Both the position numbers and the translations under genes were made by a program. 64,000 nt of DNA from an uncultured Candidatus Saccharibacteria bacterium (lineage in GTDB: Bacteria > Patescibacteriota > UBA1384 > JACPKC01). Where the stretch lies: assembly GCA_964423885.1 (NCBI GenBank), contig CAYRGD010000001.1:24156-88155 (forward strand). The letters are read 5' to 3'. Shown here piece by piece: positions 14,701-38,809 of this stretch. Under the pieces are notes generated by a model, which saw only the letters and a list, made by a program, of their open reading frames with translations, ran no database searches and had not been told where the DNA came from. Every line of letters starts with the position of its first letter. Position 1 is the first letter of the stretch.

Positions 14701-16062
14701 ATGGCGAAAGCGTCGGCTGCCACGTACGTCTGCACCGAATGTGGGAACGAAACCGCCCAATGGGCGGGCAAGTGCCCGGCCTGCGGCACGTGGAACTCGC
14801 TCAAGGAGCTGCGGGGGATCGGTGCGGCGCACACCAAGCCGACCGGTGCGCAGCGCAAGGCGTGGGTCGAGGCGGTGGCACCGGTATCGGCCGCGGACGC
14901 CGCCCAGGCACAGAAGACACTCGAACGGTTCCCGTCGATGCCCGAGGTCGACCGTGTCCTAGGCAGCGGATTCGTGCCTGGCAGCGTCCTGCTGCTGGCC
15001 GGCGAGCCGGGGATCGGGAAGTCGACGCTGCTGCTCGCGGTCGCCGACGCGGTGGCGGCCGGCGGCCCTGTCCGCTACCTGTCGGGCGAGGAATCGGCCG
15101 CCCAGGTACTCGACCGCGCCCGTCGGCTCGGTATCGCGAGCCCGCAGCTTACCGTGGCCTCGCTCACCGACGTCGACGCGATCATCGCGGCCATGGCCGC
15201 CGAGCCGCTGCCACGCCTTGCGATCGTCGATTCTATCCAGACCGTGTTCGATCCGTCGATCCCGTCGACGCCCGGCAGTTTGGTGCAGGTGCGTGACTCG
15301 GCCCTGCGCTTGACCGAAGCGGCCAAGCGCCAGGGAACGACCCTTATCCTGTCGAGCCACGTCACCAAGGAGGGGACGCTGGCCGGGCCGCGGACGCTCG
15401 AACACTTGGTGGACGTTGTACTCTACCTGGAAGGCGACCGGTACCACGTGTTGCGGATGCTGCGCGGCGTCAAGAACCGGTTCGGCCCCACCGACGAGGT
15501 CGGGGTGTTCCAGATGAAGGAGTCCGGCCTCGAGGCCGTCGCCAATCCGTCAGCCCGGTTCCTGTCGGAGCGGAGCGAGCAGTTGCCGGGATCAGTGCTC
15601 ACCTGCGTGCTCGAAGGCATGCGGCCGTTCCTGATCGAGGTGCAGGCGCTCACCACGCCGACCAAGTTCGGCTACGCCAAGCGGCGGGGGATCGGCGTCG
15701 ATACCAACCGGCTCGAACTGGTGCTGGCGGTACTCGAACGCCGGGCCGGACTCAAATTGTCGGAGCATGACGTGTTCGTGAACGTGGTGGGCGGCCTCAA
15801 AACCCAAGAACCGGCGACCGACCTTGCCATCGCCGCGGCGATCGCGAGCTCGCTCAAGAACGTCCCGGCCGACCCGAAGCTCGTATTCGTGGGCGAGATC
15901 GGGCTCACCGGCGAGCTGCGCCGGGTGCGGTTTGCCGAGCGTCGCGCCAAAGAAGCGTCCCGGTTCGGGTTCGCGATGGCGGGCGGCAAGGATGTCGGCT
16001 CTGTTTTGACTACGCTTTTCGGCGGCCCGCGCCCGGTGCGCCGGACTACGGCAGCGTCGTAA
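14701..16062 (+). CDS. radA: DNA repair protein RadA/Sms
   Basis: N-terminal C4 zinc finger (CTECGNETAQWAGKCPACGTW), Walker A LLAGEPGIGKSTLLL, Lon-protease-like C-terminal domain. Confidence 0.9.
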   Translation: MAKASAATYVCTECGNETAQWAGKCPACGTWNSLKELRGIGAAHTKPTGAQRKAWVEAVAPVSAADAAQAQKTLERFPSMPEVDRVLGSGFVPGSVLLLAGEPGIGKSTLLLAVADAVAAGGPVRYLSGEESAAQVLDRARRLGIASPQLTVASLTDVDAIIAAMAAEPLPRLAIVDSIQTVFDPSIPSTPGSLVQVRDSALRLTEAAKRQGTTLILSSHVTKEGTLAGPRTLEHLVDVVLYLEGDRYHVLRMLRGVKNRFGPTDEVGVFQMKESGLEAVANPSARFLSERSEQLPGSVLTCVLEGMRPFLIEVQALTTPTKFGYAKRRGIGVDTNRLELVLAVLERRAGLKLSEHDVFVNVVGGLKTQEPATDLAIAAAIASSLKNVPADPKLVFVGEIGLTGELRRVRFAERRAKEASRFGFAMAGGKDVGSVLTTLFGGPRPVRRTTAAS

Positions 16063-18862
16063 CGGTCGTCTGTTCGGTCGTCTGGCTTTCGTTCCCGAAC
16101 GAGTCGACCGGGCGGATCGTGAGGTAGTACTTGACGCCTCCGGCCAGGTTCTTGACCGACAGCGAGCTCGTGGATCCCGGCGTCACCGCGACCTCGGTCG
16201 GGTAGAGCGTACCGAGCGTGTCTTTGATGGTCGAGACGTAGATGCGGACCCGTTCCAGGTCGGTGTCGGAAGGGTTCGTCCAGTTGAGGTGCGCGCCTTG
16301 GCTTTCCGGCAGGGCCGAGATGAACTTCGCTTTGCCCGGCGGCGTGGTGTCGCCTTCGACGTGGACCATGACCGACTGGCTCGTGCTGGCGCCGTTCACG
16401 TCGCGGACCGTGGCCGTGAGCGTGTGGTCGCCGACGCCCAGGTCGGACGTCTTGACGGTAAAGGTATACGGGCTGGCCGTCGCGGTTCCGTAGCTGATCC
16501 CGTCGACCGACAGCGCGACCGACGCGACGCCGAACGAGGCGGCCGGCTTGGTCACGACCAAGAAGGTACCGCTCACGGTCGCCCCGTCGGTCGGCGCGGT
16601 GATCGAGACAGTGGGGATCGTGGCATCGGTGTACATGTCGTCGGTTTCGGTCGGTGGCGAGCTCATGTCGTAGCCGTGGCCCCGCGCCCACTCGATGACC
16701 GGGTTTTCCCAGCTCGGCGTGTCCTTGCGTTCGGAATGGATCACGGTATAGGTGTGTTCTTCGGTCAGCGATTCCGGCGTCAGGCTGGTGGCCAGCTTGC
16801 CGTTCAGCTTGTTGAGTTTTACCTTCACGTGGACGTCGTCGGACCCTTTCGGCATCTGCCAGGGCGCGAACAGGTCGGCCACGGTCTCGGGCGACGAGTC
16901 GGTCGGGAACTTGTTGCTTAACCGGTCGACGGTCACCGTCTTAAGGCTGTCTGGCCGCACGAAGTCGTGGCGCTCGATCGTGCCCAGCGCGCTTTCCATG
17001 AAGGTGTGGAAAATCGGGGCTGCTACCACCGAGCCGTCGGCGTTCTTCATTCCCGTATTGTCGTTATTGCCCACCCAAACCGCGGTCGCGATGTCGGGCG
17101 TGTAGCCGACTGTCCAGGCGTCGTGGAATTCCTGGGTCGTGCCGGTTTTCGCCGCCACCTGGTACTTGGAGAAGTAGAGCGCCGAGCGCGGCCCGAACAC
17201 GGCCGACCGGGCGGCGTTGTCGCTCAAAATATCGGTGATCTGGTAGGCGATCGCCGGATCCAAGACGTCCTTTTCGCCGGTACCCGCTTTATGCTCGAAG
17301 AGCGAGGTGCCGTCGGACGCCGCCACCTTGAGGATGCTCACCGGCGGCCGGTAGGTGCCGCCGTCAGCGAAGACCGAAAAGGCGCTCGCCATGTCGATCG
17401 GCTTGACCTCGCCGCCACCGAGCACGAGCGCCAGGCCGTAGCGTTCCGGCTGGTTCAAGGTCGTGATACCCAGGTCGTGGGCCGTCTGCAACGCGTTGTC
17501 GAGCCCGACCAGGCCGAGCATCTTCACTGCCGGGATATTGAGCGAGTTGGCAAGCGAGAACCGTACGGACACGGGCCCGCGGAACCCGCCGTCGTAGTTG
17601 TTCGGTTTGTAGTTGCCGAAGTCGGTCGGCACGTCCCAGAGCGTGGTCGCCGGGTTGTAGCCCTGCTTGAACCCGGTCGCGTAGACGATCGGCTTGAAAC
17701 TCGAGCCCGGTTGCCGTTCCGACAGCGTGACGTTGACGTTGCCGTCGTGCTCGGTGTCGAAGTAGTCCGCCGACCCGACCATCGCGAGCACCTCGCCGGT
17801 GTGCGGGTCGAGCGAGATGAGCGCCGCGTTGCTGCCGCCGCGTTGGCGGACCTTGGCCATGCCTTGGTCGATCGCCGCCTCGGCCTGTTCCTGTAACCCC
17901 AGGTCGAGCGAGGTGGTTACCTTGAGCCCGCCTTCCTCGACCCGCTGCTCGCCGAACTGGTCGACCAGCTGCTCGCGGATGTAGAAGACGAAGTGCGGCG
18001 CCTTGATCGAATCCTTCTGCGGCACCACCGCGATATCGGTCGCCTTGGCCGCGTCGGCGGCCGCGCGGGTCACGTCGCCCAGGTCGGCCATGGTGTCCAG
18101 GATGAAGTCGCGCCGGGCTTTCAAATCGTCGGTGTGGGTGCCGTAGGGCGAGAAGTAGGTCGGGCGCTGGGGAATGCCGGCAAGCAGGGCAGCCTGTTCA
18201 AGGTTCAGCTCCTTGGCCGGCTTTTCGAAGAACGCCTGCGATGCCGCCTCGATCCCGTAGATATTGCTGCCGTACGGGATCTCATTGAGGTACATCGTCA
18301 GGATCTCGTCCTTGCTGAACATGCTTTCGATCTCGAGCGAGAGAATGAGTTCCTTGATCTTGCGGTCCAAGGCTTTCTGGTTCGTGAGCAGGGCGTTCTT
18401 GACGTACTGTTGGGTGATCGTCGAGCCGCCGACCCGTTTGCCGGTGAATACGTCGATGAACACCGACCGTAGGATGCCTTGGAAATCGACGCCGTGATGT
18501 TTGTAGAAGTTTTTGTCCTCGACCGCGACCACCGCCTGTTTGACCACGTCGGGGATATCGGCGCTCGCGAGCGTCCGGCGGTTCTCGTCGCCGTGGATCT
18601 CGTACAGGAGCGTCCCGTTCCGGTCGTAGATCTGGCTCGACTGCGCCGCCTGGCGTTCTCGGATCTTGCCCGGTGTCGGCAGGTCTTTGGAGTACCAAGC
18701 GAAGAGCGCGGCCACCAGGAATACGCCCGTGACCGCGGCCAGGCGGATCCGGCGCCAGAACTTCTTTTTGTCGGTTTTGGCCCACGCGGTACGGACCCGG
18801 CGGACAAGGGTGCCGATCGACGGGACGCGCGGCGGCTTGGGAGAGGGTTTGGTGTGTGCCAT
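16046..18862 (-). CDS. Class A penicillin-binding protein (transglycosylase/transpeptidase) with C-terminal Ig/FN3-like domains
   Basis: Start MAHTKPSPK at 18862 followed by a TM segment. GT51 motifs (EDKNFYKHHGVD, RVGGSTITQQ), transpeptidase SxxK (SSFKP) and KTGT, then about 250 aa of extra Ig-like beta-sandwich modules. The track ORF's N-terminal 317 aa are an artefactual extension antisense to tyrS. Confidence 0.85.
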   Translation of the reverse strand: MAHTKPSPKPPRVPSIGTLVRRVRTAWAKTDKKKFWRRIRLAAVTGVFLVAALFAWYSKDLPTPGKIRERQAAQSSQIYDRNGTLLYEIHGDENRRTLASADIPDVVKQAVVAVEDKNFYKHHGVDFQGILRSVFIDVFTGKRVGGSTITQQYVKNALLTNQKALDRKIKELILSLEIESMFSKDEILTMYLNEIPYGSNIYGIEAASQAFFEKPAKELNLEQAALLAGIPQRPTYFSPYGTHTDDLKARRDFILDTMADLGDVTRAAADAAKATDIAVVPQKDSIKAPHFVFYIREQLVDQFGEQRVEEGGLKVTTSLDLGLQEQAEAAIDQGMAKVRQRGGSNAALISLDPHTGEVLAMVGSADYFDTEHDGNVNVTLSERQPGSSFKPIVYATGFKQGYNPATTLWDVPTDFGNYKPNNYDGGFRGPVSVRFSLANSLNIPAVKMLGLVGLDNALQTAHDLGITTLNQPERYGLALVLGGGEVKPIDMASAFSVFADGGTYRPPVSILKVAASDGTSLFEHKAGTGEKDVLDPAIAYQITDILSDNAARSAVFGPRSALYFSKYQVAAKTGTTQEFHDAWTVGYTPDIATAVWVGNNDNTGMKNADGSVVAAPIFHTFMESALGTIERHDFVRPDSLKTVTVDRLSNKFPTDSSPETVADLFAPWQMPKGSDDVHVKVKLNKLNGKLATSLTPESLTEEHTYTVIHSERKDTPSWENPVIEWARGHGYDMSSPPTETDDMYTDATIPTVSITAPTDGATVSGTFLVVTKPAASFGVASVALSVDGISYGTATASPYTFTVKTSDLGVGDHTLTATVRDVNGASTSQSVMVHVEGDTTPPGKAKFISALPESQGAHLNWTNPSDTDLERVRIYVSTIKDTLGTLYPTEVAVTPGSTSSLSVKNLAGGVKYYLTIRPVDSFGNESQTTEQTTVTTLP

Positions 18863-18880
18863 AGAGGAAGGAATCGTCGC

Positions 18881-18909
18881 TTGAGATTCTACCACATCCT
18901 TTCTATACT
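18881..18909 (+). promoter_or_regulatory. Sigma-70-like promoter for tyrS (TTGAGA-N17-TATACT)
   Basis: -35 TTGAGA at 18881-18886, 17-nt spacer, -10 TATACT at 18904-18909, then AGGAG ribosome-binding site at 18921 and ATG at 18932. Confidence 0.55.
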
Positions 18910-18931
18910 TTCCGGGAGTAAGGAGTATCCG

Positions 18932-20113
18932 ATGGCCCGATCTTTCTGGGACTTGGCGGTCGACCGCGTCTACCCGTCGGTTGCGGCGTTCACGGCCGCT
19001 GCCGCGCAGCCGTTGCGCGTCTACTTGGGCGTCGACCCGACGAGCCCGCACATCCACCTGGGGACCGCGGTGCCGCTCCGGATTCTGGCCCGGCTGCAAG
19101 AACAGGGGCACACCGTGATCCTGCTCATGGGCGGGTTCACGGCCCGTATCGGCGACCCGACCGGCCGCGACGCTACCCGCCCCGAGCTCACCGCCGACGA
19201 GGTGGCCGCCAATATGACCACCTACGCCGAGCAGGCCTTCGCGATCCTCGACCCGAAGCGGACGCTGGTGCGCGACAACGCCGAGTGGTGGGGCGCTGCC
19301 GGCGAGATGGGCACGCTCGAGGCGTTCCTGGGGCTTGGCCGGCAGTTCACCGCCGCGCAGCTGCTCGAACGAGACATGTTCCAGGAGCGGGCCAAGGCCG
19401 GGCAACCGGTCACCTTGACCGAGCTTCTCTACCCGGTCATCCAGGCCTACGATTCCGTGATGCTCGATGTCGACGCCGAGCTCGGCGGCACCGACCAGAC
19501 GTTCAACATGCTTGCCGGCCGGACACTTATGCGCCAACAGAAACAAAAGGAAAAGTACGTGCTGACGACCCGGCTGCTCACCGGTTCCGACGGCCGCAAG
19601 ATGAGCAAGTCGTACGGGAACGCGGTCTGGATCACCGACAGCCCGGCCGAGATGTTCGGCAAGCTTATGGCAGTGAGCGACGCGGTCTTGCCCGAGTACT
19701 GCGCGCTCGCGGCCGGGATCGATCCCGACGAACCGGTATTCGCGGCCCTGATCCGGAGCGACCCGCGTGCGGCCAAGGCGAAGATGGCCTACGAAACGGT
19801 GGCGTTCTACCACGGTGCCGAGGCGGCCGAAACCGCCAGCCGGGGCTTCGACCGCCAGTTCCGCGACGGCGCCCTGCCCGACGAGATCGCCGAACGTTGG
19901 CCGTCGGTGGTTGCGCAGGAACGACTGACGTTCTTTTTGGTCGACCTGGGCCTGGCAAGCTCCAAGACCGAGGCAGCGCGCCTTATCGCCCAGGGCGGGG
20001 TCAAGGTCGACGGTGCCGTCATCACAGACCCGTTCGCGGCGCTCATGCCCCGGCCGGGGATGCTCATCCAGGTGGGCAAGCGCCAGTTCGTCCGTCTGGC
20101 CGAACCGCGATGA
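18932..20113 (+). CDS. tyrS: Tyrosyl-tRNA synthetase
   Basis: Start MARSFWDLA with an AGGAG ribosome-binding site. HIGH-region PTSPHIHLGT, KMSKS motif (KMSKSYGNAV), C-terminal S4 domain. The track ORF from 18479 is an extension. Confidence 0.9.
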   Translation: MARSFWDLAVDRVYPSVAAFTAAAAQPLRVYLGVDPTSPHIHLGTAVPLRILARLQEQGHTVILLMGGFTARIGDPTGRDATRPELTADEVAANMTTYAEQAFAILDPKRTLVRDNAEWWGAAGEMGTLEAFLGLGRQFTAAQLLERDMFQERAKAGQPVTLTELLYPVIQAYDSVMLDVDAELGGTDQTFNMLAGRTLMRQQKQKEKYVLTTRLLTGSDGRKMSKSYGNAVWITDSPAEMFGKLMAVSDAVLPEYCALAAGIDPDEPVFAALIRSDPRAAKAKMAYETVAFYHGAEAAETASRGFDRQFRDGALPDEIAERWPSVVAQERLTFFLVDLGLASSKTEAARLIAQGGVKVDGAVITDPFAALMPRPGMLIQVGKRQFVRLAEPR

Positions 20114-21792
20114 CCTGGTACCTGCCTGCGCTCCGGGCCGCGGTCGCGGACGCGCTCGGGCCGTCGTTCACGGTGACCGACGACGTACCGGCTACCAAGC
20201 CGGCCTGGCTCGCCATTCCATGCTTTGCCGACGCGAAGCAGCGGGGCGTGACGCCGGCTGAAGCCGCCGCTGCCGTTGCCGACAGGCTGCGGCAGGCGTT
20301 CCCAGACCTCACCGTCGAGACGGAAGGGGGGTTCGTGAATCTCCGACCCGGCCCGAACGCCTTGGCGGCGGTGCTTACCGAGGCGCAGCAGCGCGCATAC
20401 GGAGCAAACGACCTGCACCGCGGCAAGACCGTAGTCGTCGAGTTCTCGGCGCCCAATATCGCCAAGCCGATGGGCGTCGGCCACCTGCGCAGCACGGTCA
20501 TCGGCGACGCGTTGCAGCGGCTCTACGCGACGCAAGGATATGCTGTCCATGCGGTGAACCACCTGGGCGATTGGGGAACCGGCTTCGGCAACCTGATGGC
20601 CGCGTACCAGCGCCAGTACGGCGACCTCGTCCCTCGGCCCGAGATCACGATCACCGACCTATTAGCGCTCTACGTCGGGTTCAACGCCCAACTGGAGCAG
20701 GACGATTCCTTGCGCACGCTCGGCAGGGACCTGTTCGCCCGGCTCGAGCAGGGCGACCCGGCCGTGGTGGCACTGTGGCAGGCGTTCGTCTCCCTGTCGC
20801 TTGATGAGTTCCGCGGGATGTACGGGCGGCTCCATATCACGTTCGACGACCCCGACGCAGGGGAAAGCCGGTACCAGCCGTTGGTCGCGCCGCTCGTCGA
20901 GCGGGCACTGGCCGACGGAACCGCCCGGGAAAGCGACGGGGCGGTGATCATCCCGATCCCCCACGAACCGGCGCCGCTCCTGCTGCGCAAGGCCGACGGC
21001 AGCACGATCTACGGCGCCCGCGACCTGGCCGCCATCGAGTACCGCCAGGCGCAGTACCATCCCGACGCCATCGTCTACGTCGTCGCCAACGAACAGGCGC
21101 TCCACTTCCGCCAGGTCTTCGCCGCCGCCCGGGCGCTCAAGCTTGTGCCGGATACGACGGAACTGCTCCATGTGAAGTTCGGCTTGGTCCGGACAGCCGA
21201 AGGCAAAATGAGTACCCGCAAGGGCACCTTGGTGGTATTGAACGACCTGCTCGACCAGGCGGTCGCGAAGGCGGGCGAGCTGCTCGGCGACCGTCTTGCC
21301 GACCTGCCGGCAACGGAGCGGGCGGCAACGGCCGAACGGTTGGGCATCGGCGCGGTCAAGTTCCTTGATCTGTCGCACGACCGCCAGCATGACATCGTGT
21401 TCGACTGGGATCGGGCGCTCTCGCTCACGGGCGATAGCGCACCCTATCTCATGTACGCGCACGTGCGGGCGAGTAACATCCTTATGAAACTCGGTGCTGC
21501 GGACAGTACGGTCGCTGGCAACGAGGCGTATCTGCCGCATGCCACGCTTATCCGCCACCTGGCCCGGTACCCGCTCGTTCTCACCCAAGCGACTGCCGAA
21601 CAGGCGCCGCACGTCGTGGCGCAGTACCTGTCGCAATTGGCTGCGCAGTTCAATGGCTTCTACGAACAGTACCCGGTCGCATCGGCGGCAGGGGATGAAC
21701 AGGCTGCACGGGCCCACGTGGTGGCTGCTGTCCGCTCGGTCCTTGCGCACGGACTCGCGATCCTCGGCATCGAGACCGTCGGGTCGATGTAA
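20110..21792 (+). CDS. argS: Arginyl-tRNA synthetase
   Basis: Start MTWYLPAL overlaps the tyrS stop (ATGA). Class-I HIGH variant (PNIAKPMGVGHLRS), anticodon-binding DALR-like C-terminal domain. The track ORF from 19285 is an extension. Confidence 0.85.
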   Translation: MTWYLPALRAAVADALGPSFTVTDDVPATKPAWLAIPCFADAKQRGVTPAEAAAAVADRLRQAFPDLTVETEGGFVNLRPGPNALAAVLTEAQQRAYGANDLHRGKTVVVEFSAPNIAKPMGVGHLRSTVIGDALQRLYATQGYAVHAVNHLGDWGTGFGNLMAAYQRQYGDLVPRPEITITDLLALYVGFNAQLEQDDSLRTLGRDLFARLEQGDPAVVALWQAFVSLSLDEFRGMYGRLHITFDDPDAGESRYQPLVAPLVERALADGTARESDGAVIIPIPHEPAPLLLRKADGSTIYGARDLAAIEYRQAQYHPDAIVYVVANEQALHFRQVFAAARALKLVPDTTELLHVKFGLVRTAEGKMSTRKGTLVVLNDLLDQAVAKAGELLGDRLADLPATERAATAERLGIGAVKFLDLSHDRQHDIVFDWDRALSLTGDSAPYLMYAHVRASNILMKLGAADSTVAGNEAYLPHATLIRHLARYPLVLTQATAEQAPHVVAQYLSQLAAQFNGFYEQYPVASAAGDEQAARAHVVAAVRSVLAHGLAILGIETVGSM

Positions 21793-21793
21793 G

Positions 21794-24055
21794 TTAGAAC
21801 GAGGCTTTGAGCAGCTTGCCGCTTGCCAGGATGTAGGCGGTCTTGTGCGGCTCGTCTACCGCGGCATCGTCGATGTCCGTCAGATCGTCGAACGCATACT
21901 GCCCCGAGAACTGGCCGGATTTGGCGTATGCGAGCATCCGGCCGCCGTCGAGCAGGAACAGGGTGTTGCTGTCGGTAGTGGTCAGGAGCCGTTTGGGCGC
22001 GGTGAGTTCGCTCGTGGGCGCCGGCGCGCCGCCAAGCGCGAAGCTATCGGCCTTGCCGCGGTTGAGGCGGGTGACCGTGCCGTCGCGGCTAAGGACGTAC
22101 ACCTGGCCGTCGATCGCGAGGTCGACGGCGTCGGCTACGTCGGTGCTGTCGGCAAGGTAGGCGTCGGCGGCACCGAACCCGGTCTTGGTCGAGCTGTACT
22201 TCCAGATTTGCGTACCCGCGGTGTCTAGTACGTACAGGTTGCCTAGGAACGCGGCCAGACCGGTACCGGTGCGTGCGGTGCCGCCCGCGTCGACAGCGGT
22301 GAGCGTCCCGTCGGCCGCGACGGTCGCGAGACCTGTGTCGGTCAAGATTGCTGCCGCGTCGTCGAGCGCGGCGACGGCGGCGATGCGCCGGCCGCCCAAG
22401 TCGACTGTGCGCGGGGTACCGCCGCCCAATGGCACGACCGTCAGCGACGTCCCGTTCTTGCCCACGACCGCCGCGTTGTCGCCGAAGACGGCCAGCCGTG
22501 CCGCATCGGGTATCGAGGCGACCTCGGTCAGGTTCGTGAGCCGCGTTGTTTTGGTGAGCGCGTCGAGTTCGCCGGTCGCTTTGGTTTGCAGCTCTGCCGC
22601 CTCGCGTTCGACCACGGTGTTGCGCAGCGCCGGCAGGCCGTCGAGCACGGTCTTGAGCGCCGCTTGCGCCTTATCCGGCTGGTTGAAAACGCGGGCCAGG
22701 CGGGCTTCCTCGAGTTTGTCCGCGAGCGTCTGGAGTTCGACGCCGAGCGTCTGGCGCGACTGCTCGGTCGACCGCTGCCGGGTGATAACCCGCAGGTTGG
22801 AGATGAGAATGACCAGCAGCACCAGTGCGACCAGGCCGAACCCGACCGAGCGCCAATCGATGCGCCGGGCGGCTGAGTTTGTCTGTGCTTTGGCCGCCCC
22901 AAGGAGCCGCCGGTGCCAGGGCTCGGCGGCCGGCGCCGGGGGAGCTGCCGTGTAGTCGGTGATCACAGGGCCGCTGCCGGTAGATTCGGGTTCGTCGGCC
23001 AGGCCGGCGTAGTCACGGATCGCGAACACCGGCTTGCCGATCAGGTTTTCGGGCTCGTCCTTGGCAGGTGGCATTGGCGCGGCAGCGCGGCGTTCTTTCA
23101 GCTGCCGGATGAGATCGGCGGCGGCGGCTTTCCCGGCCCGGGCATGTTTGCCGACTGCGGGTATCACCGTCGTCCGCACGTGGTGCGACTTGGCCTGCGT
23201 CCATGCCTTGGCTTGTTCAAGGAGCGCGGCGGCGTCGAGCTTGGGTGCCGCGGCCACCGTGTCCGAGGCCGACGCGGTACCTGCGCGCTTGGCTGGAACG
23301 ACGTACCGCTTGGCCGTACCGATGAACCGGTCGATCTGGCTGCGCACGCCACCCAATCCGCCGCCGTGGTCGACCACGGCGTCAGGCAGCAGCTCGGCGG
23401 CCGCGTCGATGTAGAGGCAGTTCACCCAGCCGCCCCGCTTGGCGGCAAGGAGCGACGACAGGCCGCTCACCGCTTCGGCGGGCGTGGGCGCAGCCAAGGT
23501 GTGTTCGATCTCGACCGGCGTCAGGAGCTGGGATAGGCCGGAACTGGCGATCAGCAGCCGGTCGGCCGGTTCGACGGTACCGGACAGCACGGTGCCGAAG
23601 ACCTTGCCCGGTGCGGCCGGCGGTTCGTCGCCGTCGAGCATCGGCGAGCCGTGGTCGTCGCGGAGCAGCGTCGCCGTCACCTGGCCCGACGCCGCGATAT
23701 GGACGGCGTCGCCCACCAGCAACACGACCGCCGCGTTCACGTGCCCGATCCAGTCGGTGTTGCCGGTGTGGCTCGCGGCCGTGAGCGTCTCGTTGACGCG
23801 CTTCAAGGCGGTTTCAAAATTCAGCAGCGGGTCGCTCGCGCCGGCGCGGTAGTAGTGGCGGGCGACGGTATTGATGATCGTCTGGCCGACCTGGGCGTTT
23901 GACTGCCACGAGCCCTCAATTTCGACGAGCGCGCAGATCCGGCCCGCCTCGGCGTGTTCCTGTGACGGCGGCTCCTTGATCTGGACCGTCAGGTAGCGGT
24001 CGGACAGCCGGGCGTCCGTACTGATTCGAATCGCGCGCAATCCCTGCGTAGGCAT
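21794..24055 (-). CDS. Membrane protein: N-terminal degenerate PP2C-like (pseudo)phosphatase domain, single TM, coiled coil, extracellular beta-propeller-like domain
   Basis: N-terminus follows the PPM-fold motif order (STDARLSDRYL ~ TDxGxxRxxNED; ICALVEIEGSW in place of the catalytic DGMGG; IAASGQVTATLLRDD; ADRLLIASSGL) but the metal-binding Asp residues are replaced. TM at about aa 395-415, then repeats of the type YVLDTAGTQIWKY / VYVLSRDGTVTRL. Confidence 0.5.
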   Translation of the reverse strand: MPTQGLRAIRISTDARLSDRYLTVQIKEPPSQEHAEAGRICALVEIEGSWQSNAQVGQTIINTVARHYYRAGASDPLLNFETALKRVNETLTAASHTGNTDWIGHVNAAVVLLVGDAVHIAASGQVTATLLRDDHGSPMLDGDEPPAAPGKVFGTVLSGTVEPADRLLIASSGLSQLLTPVEIEHTLAAPTPAEAVSGLSSLLAAKRGGWVNCLYIDAAAELLPDAVVDHGGGLGGVRSQIDRFIGTAKRYVVPAKRAGTASASDTVAAAPKLDAAALLEQAKAWTQAKSHHVRTTVIPAVGKHARAGKAAAADLIRQLKERRAAAPMPPAKDEPENLIGKPVFAIRDYAGLADEPESTGSGPVITDYTAAPPAPAAEPWHRRLLGAAKAQTNSAARRIDWRSVGFGLVALVLLVILISNLRVITRQRSTEQSRQTLGVELQTLADKLEEARLARVFNQPDKAQAALKTVLDGLPALRNTVVEREAAELQTKATGELDALTKTTRLTNLTEVASIPDAARLAVFGDNAAVVGKNGTSLTVVPLGGGTPRTVDLGGRRIAAVAALDDAAAILTDTGLATVAADGTLTAVDAGGTARTGTGLAAFLGNLYVLDTAGTQIWKYSSTKTGFGAADAYLADSTDVADAVDLAIDGQVYVLSRDGTVTRLNRGKADSFALGGAPAPTSELTAPKRLLTTTDSNTLFLLDGGRMLAYAKSGQFSGQYAFDDLTDIDDAAVDEPHKTAYILASGKLLKASF

Positions 24056-24125
24056 ATCGATACCGAAACCCCCTCCCGACGGCTGCAGTCCACCTACCGT
24101 ATCATAAATCGTCCGTTCATGGTTC

Positions 24126-24203
24126 TGGTCGGGGTGGGCGGATTTGAACCGCCGGTCTCCAGACCCCCAGCCTGGCGCATTAGGCCAACTATGCTACACC
24201 CCG
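24126..24203 (-). tRNA. tRNA-Pro (anticodon GGG)
   Basis: Reverse complement folds as CGGGGTG-TA-GCAT-AGTTGGCCTA-ATGC-G-CCAGG-CTGGGGG-TCTGG-AGACC-GGCGG-TTCAAAT-CCGCC-CACCCCG-A-CCA. Cloverleaf with anticodon GGG and an encoded CCA. Confidence 0.85.
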
Positions 24204-24212
24204 TTGCACCGG

Positions 24213-24812
24213 TCATCCTCCCATAATCCGGGCGGCAAGGGTAGAGGCCGCACCCGCGAGCCAGCCGCCGAGCGGCGTCAGTTGCAGGGCCAGCACCGTG
24301 CCGATGAGCAGCATCGGGCCCGACCGCTCAAGGTCGCGGAAGGCGTCCGGCCCGATAATGGGCTGCAACAGTTTCGAGCCGTCGAGCGGCGGAACGGGCA
24401 GCAGGTTAAAGCATGCGAGCGAGACGTTCAGATAGATGAAGAATGCCCCCAACGGCGCGATCCCCGGCACGGCACGGATGACAAGGCCGGCGATGATCGC
24501 CAGTACCAGGTTGCTCGCCGGGCCTGCTAGGGCAACCAGCAGCTCGTCGGTCACCGGCCGCGCGAAGTTGCGAGGGTCGACCGGTACCGGCCGGCCCCAG
24601 CCGAACCCGACGACGAGCAGCATGACGCTGCCGAACGGATCGAGGTGGGCGAGGGGATTGAGGCTCACCCGGCCCAGGTGCCGGGCTGTCGGGTCGCCCA
24701 GCCGGTCGGCGACGAACGCGTGGCAGCATTCGTGGACCGTGACGGCGATCACGAGCGAGGCCAGGAACACCAGAACGGCGAGCGGGTCGCGGAAGGCGTC
24801 GGCAAGGAGCAT
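24213..24812 (-). CDS. Site-2 protease family (M50) zinc metalloprotease
   Basis: HExxH (VHECCHAF) in TM1 and LDG motif (LLPVPPLDGSKLL). Start taken at internal MLLADAF (24812); the track ORF extends to 24941. Confidence 0.8.
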   Translation of the reverse strand: MLLADAFRDPLAVLVFLASLVIAVTVHECCHAFVADRLGDPTARHLGRVSLNPLAHLDPFGSVMLLVVGFGWGRPVPVDPRNFARPVTDELLVALAGPASNLVLAIIAGLVIRAVPGIAPLGAFFIYLNVSLACFNLLPVPPLDGSKLLQPIIGPDAFRDLERSGPMLLIGTVLALQLTPLGGWLAGAASTLAARIMGG

Positions 24813-24818
24813 AGAGGC

Positions 24819-24847
24819 TTGCGGCAAGCGCGGTTTCTCGGTACAGT
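24819..24847 (+). promoter_or_regulatory. Promoter for leaderless rpmB (TTGCGG-N17-TACAGT)
   Basis: -35 TTGCGG at 24819-24824, 17-nt spacer, -10 TACAGT at 24842-24847, and the ATG at 24855 is 7 nt downstream, which implies a leaderless transcript. Confidence 0.45.
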
Positions 24848-24854
24848 ATCGCAC

Positions 24855-25040
24855 ATGCACGTCACCCATCTCAAGCAACCCAAGAACTGGTTCTGCGCGT
24901 TCTGCGGCAAGGGCACGGTTTCGTCGCTCCGCCGCTCGCACTCGTTCCGCGGTACCAAGCGGACCGCCTGGGGCAACCTGCAGCCGTACAAGTACGGCCT
25001 GCGGATCTGCACCCGCTGCAACAAGAAAGCGCCCCGGTAA
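24855..25040 (+). CDS. rpmB: 50S ribosomal protein L28 (zinc-ribbon type)
   Basis: 61 aa: MHVTHLKQPKNWFCAFCGKGTVSSLRRSHSFRGTKRTAWGNLQPYKYGLRICTRCNKKAPR. The L28 pattern G..V...RSH....TKR...NLQ is present, with a C4 zinc ribbon. Confidence 0.65.
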   Translation: MHVTHLKQPKNWFCAFCGKGTVSSLRRSHSFRGTKRTAWGNLQPYKYGLRICTRCNKKAPR

Positions 25041-25074
25041 TCCGAGGCGCTTTTCTTACGCTGCGGTGCTGCGG

Positions 25075-25434
25075 TTAGGCAGCGGCCGCGGTGTCGTCGC
25101 CGGTATCCGGCGTGACCGCTGCGTCAGTCGACGCGGCCGGCTGGGCGCCGTTCCGCTGCGCGACAAAACAGTCGCGGCAGAGGACGTCGTCACGGACCGG
25201 CTGGAAGGGAACTTCCGACTGCTTGCCACAGCTGGCGCAGGTGATCGGATGCATCTTCCGTTCGCCGCCGAAGTTACCGCCGCCGGCTTGCGCCTGCCCG
25301 GCCTTCTTCTTGGCGCGGCAATCCTTGCAGCGGGTGGGAGCACTCAAGCCCTTCTGGGCATAGAAGCTCTGCTCACCGGCGGTCCAGGTAAACGCCTGGC
25401 CGCAGTCGCGACAGGTCAGTTGCTGATCTTGCAT
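25075..25434 (-). CDS. Zinc-ribbon domain protein (two CxxC...CxxC modules)
   Basis: MQDQQLTCRDCGQAFTWTAGEQSFYAQKGLSAPTRCKDCRAKKKA ... ITCASCGKQSEVPFQPVRDDVLCRDCF: a duplicated treble-clef zinc ribbon. Confidence 0.6.
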   Translation of the reverse strand: MQDQQLTCRDCGQAFTWTAGEQSFYAQKGLSAPTRCKDCRAKKKAGQAQAGGGNFGGERKMHPITCASCGKQSEVPFQPVRDDVLCRDCFVAQRNGAQPAASTDAAVTPDTGDDTAAAA

Positions 25435-25526
25435 ACTACCTCGTAGTTGGAACCTTTTATACTGCTCTCAGCGACGACCTAGTTCACGCTGCGAGTTCGG
25501 CACCAGATTACAGGGAAAGGCGCCGG

Positions 25527-25555
25527 TTGTCAATCTGGAAGGCGCCTGCTAGCAT
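25527..25555 (+). promoter_or_regulatory. Promoter for leaderless holB (TTGTCA-N17-TAGCAT)
   Basis: -35 TTGTCA at 25527-25532, 17-nt spacer, -10 TAGCAT at 25550-25555, ATG at 25563. The track's 25527 start is the TTG inside the -35 element and is unlikely to be the real start. Confidence 0.45.
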
Positions 25556-25562
25556 CCGACCC

Positions 25563-26210
25563 ATGATGTTCGACCGCCTCGACCGGGCCATGCAGCCGGG
25601 GACACGCCTGCAGCCGATCCTGGCTGTCGGCGGCGGCGAGCCGCTCTGGCGCGAGGCCGCGGCGCACGTGGCGGCGCACCTGGCAGTGACGCCCGCGGAC
25701 ACCGTCGAGCTCACCGAAGTGCCCTCGATCGCGCTCCTGCGCGAAACGCTCCAGCGGATCCAGCTGAAGCCGCTCCATGGTGCGCGGACGTTGGTCGCTG
25801 CCTTCCATCTCGACCGGTGGTCGCCCGAACTCATGAACACGGCGCTTAAAACTGTCGAGGAACCGCCAGCCCACGCCGCGATCCTGCTTTGCGCTGGTTC
25901 GAGCAGCCCGATCCTGCCCACCATCCTGTCGCGTGTCGGCGTCGTCCGTCTGCCGGCCCAGGCAACGCTCGCCGAGGTACCAGCGGCGCTCGGCGGCAGT
26001 GTCCGCGAGGCCTTCGCCGCCGCCCAGGCGCTCGCCGAGGGTGACGAGCCGCCGGTGTCGCTCATCGGTTCGTGGTCCGCCCAGGCGCCCACGCTGGCGG
26101 CCAAGCGGTCGCTCCTCGAGCTGGCGGCGACCGTCCGCGGTGCGCCGGTCAACAAGCGGCTGGCGCTCGAGACGGCCGCCCTGCTGTGGCGGAACGGGGC
26201 GCGCGCATGA
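25563..26210 (+). CDS. holB: DNA polymerase III delta-prime subunit (short form)
   Basis: Clamp-loader box LKTVEEPPAHAAILLCA and sensor-2-like LPTILSRV; degenerate P-loop ILAVGGGEPLW. Only about 216 aa. Confidence 0.65.
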   Translation: MMFDRLDRAMQPGTRLQPILAVGGGEPLWREAAAHVAAHLAVTPADTVELTEVPSIALLRETLQRIQLKPLHGARTLVAAFHLDRWSPELMNTALKTVEEPPAHAAILLCAGSSSPILPTILSRVGVVRLPAQATLAEVPAALGGSVREAFAAAQALAEGDEPPVSLIGSWSAQAPTLAAKRSLLELAATVRGAPVNKRLALETAALLWRNGARA

Positions 26211-27429: not shown

Positions 27430-27504
27430 GCCGCCTTAGCTCAGCGGTAGAGCAGCTGTTTTGTAAACAGCAGGTCGTCGGTTCAAATCCGTCAGGCGGC
27501 TCCA
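27430..27504 (+). tRNA. tRNA-Thr (anticodon TGT)
   Basis: GCCGCCT-TA-GCTC-AGCGGTA-GAGC-A-GCTGT-TTTGTAA-ACAGC-AGGTC-GTCGG-TTCAAAT-CCGTC-AGGCGGC-T-CCA. One U:U mismatch in the T stem (50:64). A TATACT -10 element at 27413-27418 may drive the tRNA operon. Confidence 0.8.
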
Positions 27505-27507
27505 TGC

Positions 27508-27595
27508 GCTGGGGTACCCAAGCGGTCAACGGGGGCAGACTGTAAATCTGCTGGCCTATGCGCCTTCGTAGGTTCGAATCCTACCTCCAGCACCA
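27508..27595 (+). tRNA. tRNA-Tyr (anticodon GTA), class II with long variable arm
   Basis: GCTGGGG-TA-CCC...GGG-G-GCAGA-CTGTAAA-TCTGC-[16-nt variable arm]-GTAGG-TTCGAAT-CCTAC-CTCCAGC-A-CCA. Closely parallels E. coli tRNA-Tyr. Confidence 0.8.
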
Positions 27596-27618
27596 CTACA
27601 GCCGTGAACGGTCCATGC

Positions 27619-27693
27619 GCCCGAGTAGCTCAGGGGTAGAGCAACTCCATGGTAAGGAGTAGGTCAGGGGTTCAAGTCCCCTCTCGGGCTCCA
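27619..27693 (+). tRNA. tRNA-Thr (anticodon GGT)
   Basis: GCCCGAG-TA-GCTC-AGGGGTA-GAGC-A-ACTCC-ATGGTAA-GGAGT-AGGTC-AGGGG-TTCAAGT-CCCCT-CTCGGGC-T-CCA. Confidence 0.85.
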
Positions 27694-27712
27694 ACAGTCG
27701 AAAGGAACAGGT

Positions 27713-27898
27713 ATGGCGAAAAAGGGTAAGGTCCAGAAGTTCCACCTCACTTGCAGCGAATGCGGCGAGCGGAACTACGTGGCCAAGAAGAACACCGTCA
27801 ACGTGACCGGGAAACTGGCGCTGTCCAAGTACTGCGCGCGCTGCCGGCTCCACAAAGCGCACAACGAAACCAAGCTGCCGAACCCGAAGCCGCGCTGA
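27713..27898 (+). CDS. rpmG: 50S ribosomal protein L33
   Basis: MAKKGKVQKFHLTCSECGERNYVAKKNTVNVTGKLALSKYCARCRLHKAHNETK: the L33 family with a C4 zinc ribbon; AAAGGAA ribosome-binding site. Confidence 0.9.
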   Translation: MAKKGKVQKFHLTCSECGERNYVAKKNTVNVTGKLALSKYCARCRLHKAHNETKLPNPKPR

Positions 27899-27929
27899 CG
27901 CACGCCGGTTTGGTATGCTGTGCGGGCAG

Positions 27930-28003
27930 GGGAGCTTGGTGAAGTGGCATCACGACGGTCTCCAAAACCGTGGTCGGGGGTTCGATTCCCTCAGCTCCTG
28001 CCA
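27930..28003 (+). tRNA. tRNA-Trp (anticodon CCA)
   Basis: GGGAGCT-TG-GTGA-AGTGGCA-TCAC-G-ACGGT-CTCCAAA-ACCGT-GGTC-GGGGG-TTCGATT-CCCTC-AGCTCCT-G-CCA. Discriminator G is typical of Trp; the position after rpmG matches the conserved rpmG-tRNA-Trp arrangement. Confidence 0.8.
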
Positions 28004-29206: not shown

Positions 29207-31069
29207 CTAGCTATGGAACGGCCGGCGGATAATGAGATACGACACCATGCCCGACAAGACGAAGGCGATAAGCAGCGCCAGGCTCAAGCTGGTACCGGTC
29301 TGGGCGAGCCGCGAGGGCACCGTGGCCGTGGTCACGGTCGACGTCGCCGCCCGCACCGTGATCGTCTGGGTGCCTACCTGGCTGCCGATCCGTACCGTGG
29401 CGGTGTACGTGCCGGGATTCAGGTACGTATGCGACACCGACGCGCCGGTCGCGGTCGTGCCGTCACCGAAGTCCCAGGTGGCTGTCGCCGCATCGGGGCC
29501 CGTGACCGTCCCGGCTACCGTGAGCGGCGAGCTACCCGAGGTCGGCGTGAACGAATAGGTGAACGTCGGGGCTACGGGAGCGGACGCGATCGTGAAGCTG
29601 GCCGACTTCGTCTTGACCGTGCCGGCGTGCTCGTACGTCACGGTTACGGTGTACGGGCCGTCGGGCACGTGGGCGCCCGCGTCGTTCTTCTGATCCCACG
29701 TCCATGACTTGGAGCCGCCCGCCGCTAGCGTGGCTGCGGCTTGGGTCGAAATGGGCGAGAAGACACCCGTGGTGCCGCTCTTGATCCCGAACGGCGCGCC
29801 ATTGGGCAGCGTCAGCGGGTCGGTGCTCACGTTCTTCAAGCTGAACACCACCGGCTCGGCCGGGTCGTAGACGCTCTTCGACAGCGTCAGCACGGCATCG
29901 TCGGCAGTGTTGGGCGTCACCGTGACGGTTTTCTGTGATGTCTGGGTTGTGCCGTTCTGGGTCTGCGTCAGCGTGACTACGTACGAACCCGATGTCGCAT
30001 AGGTGTGCGACAAGTCTGCCCAGCCGCACGTCGTTGTCCCTATGCCGGTGCAGAGCGGCTGCTGGTCCTGGGCAGGCGAGCCGTCGCCCCAGTCCCAACG
30101 TTTCGTCACCCCGGTCGGGGTCGCGTCCGAATGGCCGGTGACCGTGAGCGGCGCCATGCCGCTAAGCGGTGTCACCGAAAACGAAATCGGGGCAGGGGAC
30201 GGGGGAGCCGGCGTCGAGACGGCCACGGTCTTCTGCGCGCTGAACGGATCCGAGGTGAGCCTGATTTGGTACGAGCCCGACGACTGGTAGGTGTGGGTCA
30301 CGGTCGCTGATCCGTTTTGGCTGGTTTGGCCGTCGCCGAAGTCCCAGTTCAAGACCAGGCCGGCTGCCTGCGTGCCGGTGTAGGTGGCGGTTACGGCAAG
30401 CGGGGCGGTGCCGCTCGCTGGCGTCACGGTAAAGTCGAAGTTGCTGATCGGCAGGTGCGGCGTGCCGAAGCTCAAGTCGTCGATCGCGACCGCGTACGAC
30501 TGCGACGCATTCTGTTTCTTGATCTCGAACTTGGCGATGCCGGTGCTGCTCCCCTTGGTCAATGTGACCGGGACGCTGTCGCAGCCGTTCCCGGTGCTCA
30601 CTACCTTGGATTCGATGGTTCCCCCGCCGATGTCGTAGCTCGTGACCACGGCGTTATTGAATTTGGTCAGCAGCACCACGGTCGACAGGCTGTCCACGAC
30701 CCGTCCGTTCGTGAAGCCGACGGTCAGCCCGTACGGGTCGAACGACCCGCCGGATTGGACGACCAAGGCGTTCGGCTGCGACGGTGCGCCGCTCCAGCCT
30801 TGGCAGATGCCGCTCGTGTCCGGCACGTAGAGCCGTGCGCCATCGCCCGCGCCCGACGAGTCGACGTAGATGCCCTGGGCGGCGTAGGCGTTATGGTCGA
30901 TCACCCCTTGGCCGCGGTCGTCGAAATGCAACACGGTCGTCACAGAATCCGCCTGCGACTGCTGGTTGGTGACCACACCCCAGTACCCGATGGATATCGA
31001 GAAAATCGCCACGGTCGCGCCGATGGCGGCACGGATCCTGCGCTGAATGCTGTCGACTGGTTTGGCCAC
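29207..31069 (-). CDS. PKD-repeat cell-surface protein with C-terminal LAQTG sortase sorting signal
   Basis: GTG start at 31069 sits 6 nt after AAGGAGGG; the track's upstream ATG at 31102 would include the ribosome-binding site. At least 3 PKD-like modules (WDFGDG/WDWGDG). C-terminus SRLAQTG + hydrophobic stretch + RRPFHS is a sortase sorting signal of the LAxTG (class-E-like) type. Confidence 0.75.
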   Translation of the reverse strand: MAKPVDSIQRRIRAAIGATVAIFSISIGYWGVVTNQQSQADSVTTVLHFDDRGQGVIDHNAYAAQGIYVDSSGAGDGARLYVPDTSGICQGWSGAPSQPNALVVQSGGSFDPYGLTVGFTNGRVVDSLSTVVLLTKFNNAVVTSYDIGGGTIESKVVSTGNGCDSVPVTLTKGSSTGIAKFEIKKQNASQSYAVAIDDLSFGTPHLPISNFDFTVTPASGTAPLAVTATYTGTQAAGLVLNWDFGDGQTSQNGSATVTHTYQSSGSYQIRLTSDPFSAQKTVAVSTPAPPSPAPISFSVTPLSGMAPLTVTGHSDATPTGVTKRWDWGDGSPAQDQQPLCTGIGTTTCGWADLSHTYATSGSYVVTLTQTQNGTTQTSQKTVTVTPNTADDAVLTLSKSVYDPAEPVVFSLKNVSTDPLTLPNGAPFGIKSGTTGVFSPISTQAAATLAAGGSKSWTWDQKNDAGAHVPDGPYTVTVTYEHAGTVKTKSASFTIASAPVAPTFTYSFTPTSGSSPLTVAGTVTGPDAATATWDFGDGTTATGASVSHTYLNPGTYTATVRIGSQVGTQTITVRAATSTVTTATVPSRLAQTGTSLSLALLIAFVLSGMVSYLIIRRPFHS

Positions 31070-31169
31070 GGTTCCCTCCTTACGCGTTGCGGTTGTTGCC
31101 ACTATACCCTACTGCGACTTGTGGATGGCGGGCTTTGCTATACTGGCACCACAGGAACGGAGGGACAGC

Positions 31170-31598: not shown

Positions 31599-32017
31599 CC
31601 GCACTCTACAATGTTGGTATTGGCGTGGTTGTCACCGTGCATATCGCATGGATCGCGATCATGTTGGCAGGAGCGGGCGCATCGCTCTTGGGTTTGCTGC
31701 GCCGCCGGCCGGTTCTCGAAGCGGGATACCTGGTTGCGATTGCGTTGACCGCGCTCAATCGCGTAGTTAGTCCAGATGTTTGTTGGTTGACCCAGGCCGA
31801 ACTCGTGTTGCGCCAGCTCGCTGGCCAGCCGATTACGCGCCTGGGGTTTATCGAGCGCGGCTTTGCTGCCTTGGGACTGTCGGTCAGTAGCTCCTTCATT
31901 ATGACCGCAGAAACCGCCTGGTTTATGATCGGCATAGGTGCCACCCTGGCGTGGCATCTTGGCAGCCTGATACAACGTAACAAAAGGCGCGGTAGCATTG
32001 GAGCGGAGGAAGCATGA
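31595..32017 (+). CDS. Polytopic small membrane protein
   Basis: GTGA overlap with the upstream gene; 3-4 predicted TM helices; no recognised motif. Confidence 0.5.
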   Translation: MTALYNVGIGVVVTVHIAWIAIMLAGAGASLLGLLRRRPVLEAGYLVAIALTALNRVVSPDVCWLTQAELVLRQLAGQPITRLGFIERGFAALGLSVSSSFIMTAETAWFMIGIGATLAWHLGSLIQRNKRRGSIGAEEA

Positions 32018-33208: not shown

Positions 33209-33631
33209 ATGCAGGAGGGCGTTAGTATGAGGAATCCATCAACTGGACGGACTATCGTTGTCGGTTTGATCGCAATCGCGCTGATTGCAGGTGGCGTCTA
33301 CGCCTATCAGCGTACCCGGAATAGCTCGGCGGTTGCGGTGCCGACCGACCCGCAGACGCTGCTGGCCGTCAACAGCCAAGTGATCGACGCGACCGGTAAC
33401 ACGGTCACCGTCCGCAGCATGGTCTATCCCGACGTGGTGCTGACGGTGGCGTTCACCGATGCGACCACGTACGGCAAAACGCAACCCGACGGCACCGTGT
33501 CCGACGAACTGCCATTCGATTTTGTAATCGGTGACATCGTGACCGTCCCTGCGCTGCACGTTGCCGATACGGGCCTGATCGAAGTCGACCAAGTAGTGCT
33601 CGTGCAAGCATTCCCGGGAGGACGGCCATGA
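33209..33631 (+). CDS. Small membrane-anchored protein (paralog of 31170-31598)
   Basis: N-terminal TM (IVVGLIAIALIAGGVYAY), then SQVIDATGNTVTVR...VVLTVAFTDATTYG...GLIEVDQVVLV, parallel to the first gene of the operon. Confidence 0.55.
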   Translation: MQEGVSMRNPSTGRTIVVGLIAIALIAGGVYAYQRTRNSSAVAVPTDPQTLLAVNSQVIDATGNTVTVRSMVYPDVVLTVAFTDATTYGKTQPDGTVSDELPFDFVIGDIVTVPALHVADTGLIEVDQVVLVQAFPGGRP

Positions 33632-37956: not shown

Positions 37957-38546
37957 GCACCGACGCCCAGCCTGCGAGCGCACGCTCGAACGATATCCTG
38001 TGGACGGCCGTCGGTCTGTTGGGCGTAGCTGCCATGGGCTACTTCTACGTCGCGCCCGCCATCGCCAAGCTGAAAGAATCCCGGGCTGCCGCCCAGGCCA
38101 AGCAGAACGACGTTACGGCGATGACCGACCAGATCGCACAGATCGACCAGATCGGCCAGCAGCTGGCCGCCCAAACGGAAAGCCTGAAGCTGTTGAACCT
38201 GGCAGTGCCGGCCACCCCGGCCTTCGACCAATTGCTCATGGCGCTGGCTGCGATGGCGTCTCAGTCGGGTGTCGAACTGTCCACGGTCACGCCGGCGGTC
38301 GGCAGTACCGGCGCGTCGACCCCGTCGGCATCGGTGTCGGTCAAAGGGACGTATACCGGGATCCACCTGTTCCTCGAAAACGCGGCGAAGAACATCCGCC
38401 CGCTCACGATCACGAACCTGGGGCTCGCGGCCGCGACGGTCGAAGGCCAGGCCACGCCGCTCATTACTGCCACCATGACCATGACCGCCGCGCAGGCCGT
38501 GCTGCCCACCGATCCGGCCGCGACGCCCGAAGGGAGCCAGCAATGA
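37953..38546 (+). CDS. pilO: Type IV pilus assembly protein PilO-like
   Basis: Start MSTDAQP (ATGA overlap with pilN). TM (ILWTAVGLLGVAAMGYFYVAPAI), then coiled coil (AKLKESRAAAQAKQNDVTAMTDQIAQIDQIGQQLAAQTESLKLL), then a C-terminal domain. Confidence 0.6.
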   Translation: MSTDAQPASARSNDILWTAVGLLGVAAMGYFYVAPAIAKLKESRAAAQAKQNDVTAMTDQIAQIDQIGQQLAAQTESLKLLNLAVPATPAFDQLLMALAAMASQSGVELSTVTPAVGSTGASTPSASVSVKGTYTGIHLFLENAAKNIRPLTITNLGLAAATVEGQATPLITATMTMTAAQAVLPTDPAATPEGSQQ

Positions 38547-38800: not shown

Positions 38801-38809
38801 GGGAACAGT

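Follow-up and report, generated by a model that had tools for sequence, protein, structure and literature searches.

A candidate membrane pseudophosphatase with an NHL-type beta-propeller in a large protein family of Patescibacteria

We analyzed a 64,000-nucleotide (nt) stretch of DNA from an uncultured Candidatus Saccharibacteria bacterium (positions 24,156 to 88,155 of contig CAYRGD010000001.1, assembly GCA_964423885.1; hereafter the window), and in particular a gene on its minus strand that encodes a protein of 753 amino acids (aa) for which an earlier sequence-only reading had proposed a role as transmembrane sensor or scaffold. It is a real protein-coding gene, with an ATG start, homologues that align from residue 1, and a GC content of 0.85 at third codon positions versus 0.51 at second positions, the typical coding bias for a window with 64% GC. 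The encoded protein combines an N-terminal PPM/PP2C-fold domain, a variable linker, a transmembrane helix, a helical stalk, and a beta-propeller, and the gene lies between a tRNA gene and a peptidase gene on one side and a conserved block of housekeeping genes on the other (Table 1).

Table 1. Coordinates of the gene studied, of the regions of its product, and of the adjoining genes in the window
Feature	Position	Strand	Basis or remark
Whole gene, 753-aa single-pass membrane protein	21794..24055	-	Open reading frame list; stop codon 21794-21796; full-length homologues
Predicted cytoplasmic PPM/PP2C-fold domain, aa ~5-220, degenerate metal site, shortened flap	23396..24043	-	
VEIEGSW, aa 44-50, in place of PP2C xDGxGGH; Glu45 at the bridging-Asp site (PstP D38)	23906..23926	-	hhalign, moderate confidence
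Gly124-Gln125, in place of PP2C 'GD' (PstP G117-D118)	23681..23686	-	High-confidence hhalign and HMMER
ASSGL, aa 170-174, in place of PP2C 'cSDGl'; Ser171 for the metal-ligand Asp (PstP D191)	23534..23548	-	High-confidence hhalign and HMMER
Trp210-Val211-Asn212, in place of PP2C 'DN(V/I)T' opening the last strand (PstP D229-N230)	23420..23428	-	hhalign and HMMER
Variable cytoplasmic linker, aa 221-402, partly helical	22850..23395	-	pLDDT 28-46 over most of its length; gap-rich, poorly conserved
Linker motif LIGKPVFAIRDY, aa 338-349	23009..23044	-	Invariant in close relatives
Single transmembrane helix, aa 403-424	22784..22849	-	Hydropathy maximum 2.55 over 19 residues; helical in the model
Extracytoplasmic helical stalk, aa 425-501, conserved LEEARLA..FNQPDKA	22553..22783	-	AlphaFold2 model, conservation
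Six-bladed NHL-type beta-propeller, aa 502-753	21797..22552	-	Foldseek, HMMER profile
tRNA-Pro(GGG)	24126..24203	-	ARAGORN and Rfam; 70-nt gap to the ATG
Peptidase M50 (site-2 protease family), 199 aa	24213..24812	-	Pfam PF02163 4e-14; HExxH and LDG motifs retained
Conserved downstream block	16046..21792	mixed	Pfam
Arginyl-tRNA synthetase (ArgRS)	20110-21792	+	Convergent with the gene studied
Tyrosyl-tRNA synthetase (TyrRS)	18932-20113	+	Convergent with the gene studied; overlaps ArgRS by 4 nt
Class A penicillin-binding protein (PBP1a)	16046-18862	-	Beyond TyrRS

Single-sequence searches of Pfam and NCBIfam gave no meaningful match for the protein (a Pfam match to DUF3563 was attributed to chance), and phmmer against the PDB returned only matches with E > 0.4. 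A first full-length AlphaFold2 model, built from 9 sequences, gave the N-terminal domain a pLDDT (predicted local distance difference test) of only 55-82, and Foldseek with this model retrieved only propellers. When aa 1-225 were remodeled by AlphaFold with an 88-sequence alignment, pLDDT reached 93.6 and the predicted template modeling score (pTM) 0.90, and the domain showed the alpha-beta-beta-alpha sandwich of the PPM/PP2C superfamily. Foldseek ranked PstP first (E 6e-12, template modeling score 0.70-0.72, 20-22% identity), and the closest structural relatives were Stp1, PstP, PppA, and tPphA. Homology was also detectable at the profile level: the family profile matched Staphylococcus aureus Stp1 (2.5e-5) and tPphA (6e-4) in the PDB with HMMER, and hhalign aligned a 152-sequence N-domain alignment over 211 columns with PstP (sequence identical to that of PDB 2cm1) and tPphA, with a probability of 97-98% and E values from 1e-11 to 7e-14. 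Pfam PP2C, for its part, matches 2 of 20 distant members weakly. These results establish genuine homology between the N-terminal domain and the bacterial PPM (PP2C) phosphatases of the Stp1/PstP type. The sequence-only reading, which had recognized the order of PPM motifs in the first 190 aa, was right about the fold, although the domain extends over approximately aa 5-220.

The metal site of this domain is highly altered. In PPM enzymes, the equivalents of PstP D191 and D229 ligate the binuclear Mn/Mg center that activates the attacking water; together with D38, they correspond to D239, D282, and D60 of PP2C-alpha. We counted residue conservation over 174 full-length family members. At the position of D191, the Asp of the SDG motif, which falls in a region of high-confidence alignment and is Ser171 in our protein, all 174 have Asn, Ser, Thr, or Ala and none has an acidic residue (D/E). 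The positions facing D229, the Asp of the DN motif, are 210 or 211 (the register is certain to within one residue) and are acidic in just 20 members, neither register yielding a conserved Asp. Gly124 is invariant, and the following position, opposite PstP D118, which we take to be a third-metal ligand, is acidic in just 14. These three changes (SDG to SSG at aa 170-172, loss of the DN Asp at aa 210/211, and GD to GQ at aa 124-125) are the strongest sequence evidence for lost catalysis. Since the equivalents of the SDG and DN Asp are lost, the canonical PPM mechanism presumably cannot operate, and the domain is most likely catalytically dead, in agreement with the earlier proposal; orthologues retaining all the catalytic Asp did not appear among the members counted.

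The fourth metal-site change is of a different kind. hhalign pairs VEIEGSW with PstP ADGMGGH (aa 37-43), with moderate confidence in this region, which upholds the register of the sequence-only reading (EIEGS instead of DGMGG). Of the EIEGS residues, only Glu45, at the position of PstP D38, is conserved across the family (165 of 174 members), keeping an acidic group on a longer side chain; it is followed by Ile46, where DGxGG has Gly, and by position 47 (PstP M40), which is unconserved. The flap has lost ~26 residues relative to PstP according to hhalign and retains its terminal 'HP.K..' motif. Other residues of the domain are strongly conserved, namely E81, N88, W102, R132 (97% of the members), S158-G159, and D165 (99%), the last of which aligns with the conserved PP2C residue located just before the SDG motif ('gDr/gDk') and which we take to be structural in role.

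One strongly hydrophobic segment, a transmembrane helix already noticed in the sequence-only reading, is the only one found, and the absence of a signal peptide together with this single helix indicates a type II, N-in/C-out topology, with the PPM domain most likely in the cytoplasm and the propeller outside, as previously suggested. That reading had placed the helix and a coiled coil after the PPM domain; a variable linker of ~180 aa in fact intervenes, and the coiled coil corresponds in the model to a stalk of three helices (aa 401-456, 460-478, and 483-501; pLDDT 81-88). The linker motif LIGKPVFAIRDY is invariant in Saccharibacteria-type relatives, yet only about a quarter of the members overall (43 of 174) have it; we therefore rejected its consensus, LIGKxxYxIxDY, as a family signature, and the motif may instead be a lineage-specific docking strand. 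The repeats noticed at the C-terminus proved to form a six-bladed NHL-type propeller, with ~25 strands modeled in aa 503-752 (pLDDT 80-93), arranged in six four-stranded blades of NHL-like repeats. Foldseek matched it to the NHL domain of Brat (2e-10), to DFPase, and to the PknD sensor (1rwi), which had the best template modeling score (TMt 0.73) at 20% identity. Among NHL proteins, the family profile matched Thin NHL (4e-7), the Pizza designs, and PknD (1.3e-3) with HMMER; Pfam NHL gave no match above threshold for the single sequence. We consider the overall architecture to be established with high confidence.

This architecture characterizes a large family. A word-indexed protein search identified eight full-length relatives with 42-56% identity, but such searches, which returned 9, 14, and 25 proteins, badly undercount the family. 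An exhaustive HMMER search with the alignment of these relatives retrieved 6,417 cluster representatives at E <= 1e-3 and at least 1,017 (50% identity clusters) at E <= 1e-30. Nearly all of the best 150 HMMER matches have ~640-850 aa, align end to end, and share the same architecture. All the members with a named organism belong to the Patescibacteria, or candidate phyla radiation (CPR), including Saccharibacteria, Berkelbacteria, Microgenomates, CPR2, CPR3, and 'Patescibacteria group'. Members are labeled 'hypothetical protein' with two exceptions, one carrying a spurious 'PulG' label and one, in UniRef, automatically named 'PPM-type phosphatase domain-containing protein'. Conservation is highest in the PPM core (aa 76-175) and in propeller blades 4-6 (aa 600-725), a pattern that points to strong purifying selection on both the cytoplasmic and the outer domain.

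Upstream of the gene, on the same strand, the order is a treble-clef zinc-finger protein (zf_Tbcl), the M50 peptidase, tRNA-Pro, and the gene itself. These last elements are tightly spaced (24056-24215, minus strand): the M50 stop codon is followed by 9 nt, the tRNA, and then exactly 70 nt before the ATG, so that the tRNA is where the sequence-only reading had placed it. A promoter-like site (24874..24845) precedes the M50 gene, no terminator-like site occurs between the latter and the gene studied, and no terminator-like hairpin was found within 21500-25600; the M50 gene, the tRNA, and our gene are probably part of one transcription unit, in which a tRNA located between two protein genes would require processing. 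The Rfam scan matched only tRNAs. On the downstream side, one nucleotide separates the end of the convergent ArgRS gene from the stop codon of the gene studied.

Several other features of the window deserve mention. The tail of a division and cell wall (dcw)-type cluster, with murD, murG, and murC, is found ~15 kb from the gene (1094-6810, plus strand), followed after murC by a 283-aa protein without Pfam match that could be FtsQ/DivIB-like, and an FtsW/RodA gene (50768-51865, plus strand) occurs after that of the isoleucyl-tRNA synthetase. A second beta-propeller protein, with DUF7948 and five SBBP repeats (651 aa; 9960-11915, plus strand), is unrelated to the NHL propeller. A tRNA cluster at 27430-28003 (plus strand) has the order Thr(TGT)-Tyr(GTA)-Thr(GGT)-Trp(CCA), also present in the family locus L002, with a possible small gene, a Cys- and Lys-rich reading frame of 61 aa (27713-27898), between the last two tRNAs. 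GC content decreases to 56-60% between 31000 and 37150, a region with reading frames for large secreted or surface proteins (392 aa, 32014-33192; 1,172 aa, 33628-37146) that adjoins the gene of a PKD-domain surface protein (29207-31102, minus strand). Type IV pilus genes (37216-47500) encode a PilB/T2SSE ATPase that carries an MshEN domain, a PilN-like protein, an A24 prepilin peptidase, and a protein with an N-terminal methylation motif.

The gene neighborhood is conserved well beyond the window. A block with the order holB - (PSP1 - TPR) - zf_Tbcl - M50 - (tRNA-Pro) - family gene - ArgRS/TyrRS - PBP1a recurs across Patescibacteria, namely in other Saccharibacteria, in one genome each of Microgenomates and CPR3, and in additional members of the group. 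Its downstream part (ArgRS/TyrRS/PBP) is also present at loci L002, L004, L012, L014, L015, and L016, and the succession of M50, tRNA-Pro, and family gene also at L002 and L005. In a distant lineage (24-29% identity; L007 and L009-L011), the gene stands beside a small divergent gene without Pfam match, followed by mraZ-rsmH-ftsL-ftsI-murE of the dcw cluster, and has a sortase, L10/L12, and YceG on its other side. In CPR2 and in one more genome, the neighbors are different housekeeping genes. The small gene located between mraZ and the family gene encodes a conserved protein of 200-233 aa (L007 7229-7831, L009 7043-7744, L010 6320-6937, and L011 5616-6290, all on the minus strand), which has no Pfam match and no homologue in the window; its N-terminus, KTRVKLL..YVRE(L/I)TR.L.ERINSIRRELANLE, looks like a winged-helix DNA-binding domain, and the idea that it might be an M50 protease was rejected on testing. 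At the Microgenomates locus L014, another large protein (16805-18226, minus strand; 833 aa, extending beyond the locus) encoded just past PBP1a has faint matches to NHL/SGL/DUF5128 propellers and may be a paralogous propeller protein.

Considering the conserved, apparently non-catalytic PPM domain, the precedents for pseudophosphatases (RssB, TAB1, and PHLPP2), and the proximity of the gene to peptidoglycan and division genes, we favor the view that the protein has no catalytic role and serves envelope growth or division as a transmembrane sensor or scaffold, with a rough probability of 0.55 for this statement as a whole. The loss of metal ligands across the family and the propeller most likely located outside the membrane give substance to what the sequence-only reading had called a pseudophosphatase-type sensor or scaffold. 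According to this model, the protein would amount to a membrane phosphatase of the PstP kind that has given up catalysis for sensing or scaffolding. Its PPM domain would no longer dephosphorylate proteins but would act as a binding module, like the PP2C-like domains of RssB and TAB1, and the conservation of E45, G124, and the other residues mentioned above would reflect a conserved site for a partner or ligand. The propeller would bind a ligand derived from the envelope or from the exterior, and the single transmembrane helix and the stalk would couple this binding to the cytoplasmic domain, probably through oligomerization. Peptidoglycan synthesis or cell division would be the likely cellular context.

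Several observations weigh against this interpretation. Its link to the cell wall comes only from gene order in small, highly syntenic genomes, and the synteny may reflect history rather than function, since most of the neighbors are on the other strand and two of them are tRNA synthetases. Glu45 is strongly conserved, as is Asp19-Arg20 (~77% of the members), which makes a single-metal or otherwise altered active site possible. The first 40 residues align poorly, with hhalign pairing Asp19-Arg20 with PstP D15-R16 at low confidence; by its position in the secondary structure, Asp19 could instead match PstP D25, and the Lys/Arg at position 16, which could match PstP R20, could still be the phosphate-binding Arg. 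These residues are candidates for the N-terminal 'R..(E)D' motif, which in active PPM enzymes contributes the phosphate-binding Arg and the metal-water Asp.

In a first alternative, a Hanks-type Ser/Thr kinase or its phosphosubstrates would be bound by the dead PPM domain, which would serve as decoy or anchor in a kinase pathway. Stp1, PstP, PppA, and tPphA, the nearest structural relatives, are all phosphatases partnered with such kinases, the propeller is similar to the sensor of the kinase PknD, and kinase-binding pseudophosphatases do exist, TAB1 being an example. However, a motif search of all the reading frames of the window revealed neither an HRDLKPxN-type kinase motif nor a DGHGG-type PP2C motif, and at the 12 family loci looked up, gene calling placed no Pkinase-domain gene within about 8-10 kb and no STAS or anti-sigma gene nearby. 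The PstP-type coupling to a kinase is thus not seen at these loci, the kinase partner suggested in the sequence-only reading finds no support, and we regard this explanation as unlikely.

Somewhat less probable still is regulated intramembrane proteolysis, in which the M50 protease encoded upstream would cut the transmembrane helix after an extracytoplasmic trigger on the propeller, releasing the pseudo-PPM domain to bind a target. The predicted type II single-pass topology is that of the site-2 protease substrates RseA, RsiW, and FtsL, the M50 protein keeps the motifs listed in Table 1, and the tight arrangement described above, with a promoter-like site before the M50 gene, agrees with joint expression. 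An M50 homologue lies directly upstream on the same strand in the window (locus L006) and at L002, L005, and L015, and within ~2.5 kb at L014 and L016, the M50 gene being adjacent in 6 of 14 non-redundant loci. By contrast, it is not next to the gene at L001, L004, L012, L013, and L017 nor in the dcw-adjacent lineage, and it belongs to the larger conserved block with holB, zf_Tbcl, the aminoacyl-tRNA synthetases, and PBP1a, such that its adjacency may be frozen gene order; moreover, neither a candidate site-1 protease nor evidence of cleavage was found. A bolder version, which we consider a long shot, would be a phosphorylation-free route common to all Patescibacteria, with the propeller reading the cell wall or the host surface and the M50 protease freeing a pseudo-PP2C effector for a target in division or peptidoglycan synthesis; if true, the effector set free by regulated intramembrane proteolysis would be a phosphatase fold put to a new use.

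The PPM fold also occurs in SidD, a deAMPylase, and in Lem3, a dephosphocholinase. That our domain is likewise still an enzyme, its remodeled site (Glu45, Asp19, Asn/Ser/Thr171, and Asp165) binding one metal and hydrolyzing a phosphoprotein or another substrate, would agree with its near-invariant polar residues (Glu45, Asp165, Arg132, and, to a lesser extent, Asp19-Arg20) but is improbable, as two canonical acidic metal-ligand positions required for activity are non-acidic across the family, SidD and Lem3 retain metal-dependent active sites (the matched Lem3 structure is a D190A mutant with Mg2+), Asp165 has the probable structural role indicated above, and the flap, which helps to bind the substrate and the third metal, is truncated.

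Much of bacterial diversity belongs to the Patescibacteria, whose genomes are tiny and which live mostly attached to host cells, and the way in which they sense their environment and coordinate envelope growth is poorly understood. We found nothing on this family in the literature on Patescibacteria PP2C and propeller proteins and on CPR core families, and annotations as PP2C, phosphatase, propeller, or NHL are absent from a Saccharibacteria transposon sequencing paper and its supplements. Each component has precedents, in PPM pseudophosphatases, in membrane-anchored PP2Cs, and in NHL sensor propellers, but the literature searched does not describe a large CPR family that unites them, and neither Pfam nor NCBIfam has a model for this one; recognition of the fold has a partial forerunner in an automatic UniProt label, which flags a PPM domain in one member. 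We know of no described precedent for a membrane-anchored bacterial PP2C pseudophosphatase family. If the non-catalytic interpretation is true, the proteins studied here would constitute such a family and provide a defined entry point into signaling at the envelope and host contact in CPR. Saccharibacteria are now genetically manipulable (PMC10633639), and the sensor or scaffold hypothesis is therefore testable. The family thus offers a testable lead for CPR cell biology, without surprise at the level of mechanism.

Among known systems, PstP (Rv0018c) of Mycobacterium tuberculosis, with a cytoplasmic PP2C domain, a linker, one transmembrane helix, and an extracytoplasmic domain, has the same overall layout as the family protein, and both genes are located near peptidoglycan synthase genes. 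The family differs from it in being non-acidic at the equivalents of D191, D229, and D118, with D38 replaced by Glu, in its shorter flap, in the absence of a kinase gene nearby (within the scope given above), and in having an NHL propeller as outer domain. The C-terminal domain of Escherichia coli RssB, human TAB1, and PHLPP2 are soluble, have other architectures, and show no specific relation to the family, which is closer in structure to the active Stp1 and PstP; unlike these three pseudophosphatases, the family protein is membrane-anchored and fused to a propeller. Compared with Brat, Thin, and other NHL propellers, the family protein falls below every Pfam NHL threshold. The sensor of M. 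tuberculosis PknD is, as in the family protein, a six-bladed NHL propeller located outside the membrane after a single transmembrane helix, but whereas its cytoplasmic partner domain is an active kinase, that of the family is a degenerate phosphatase fold.

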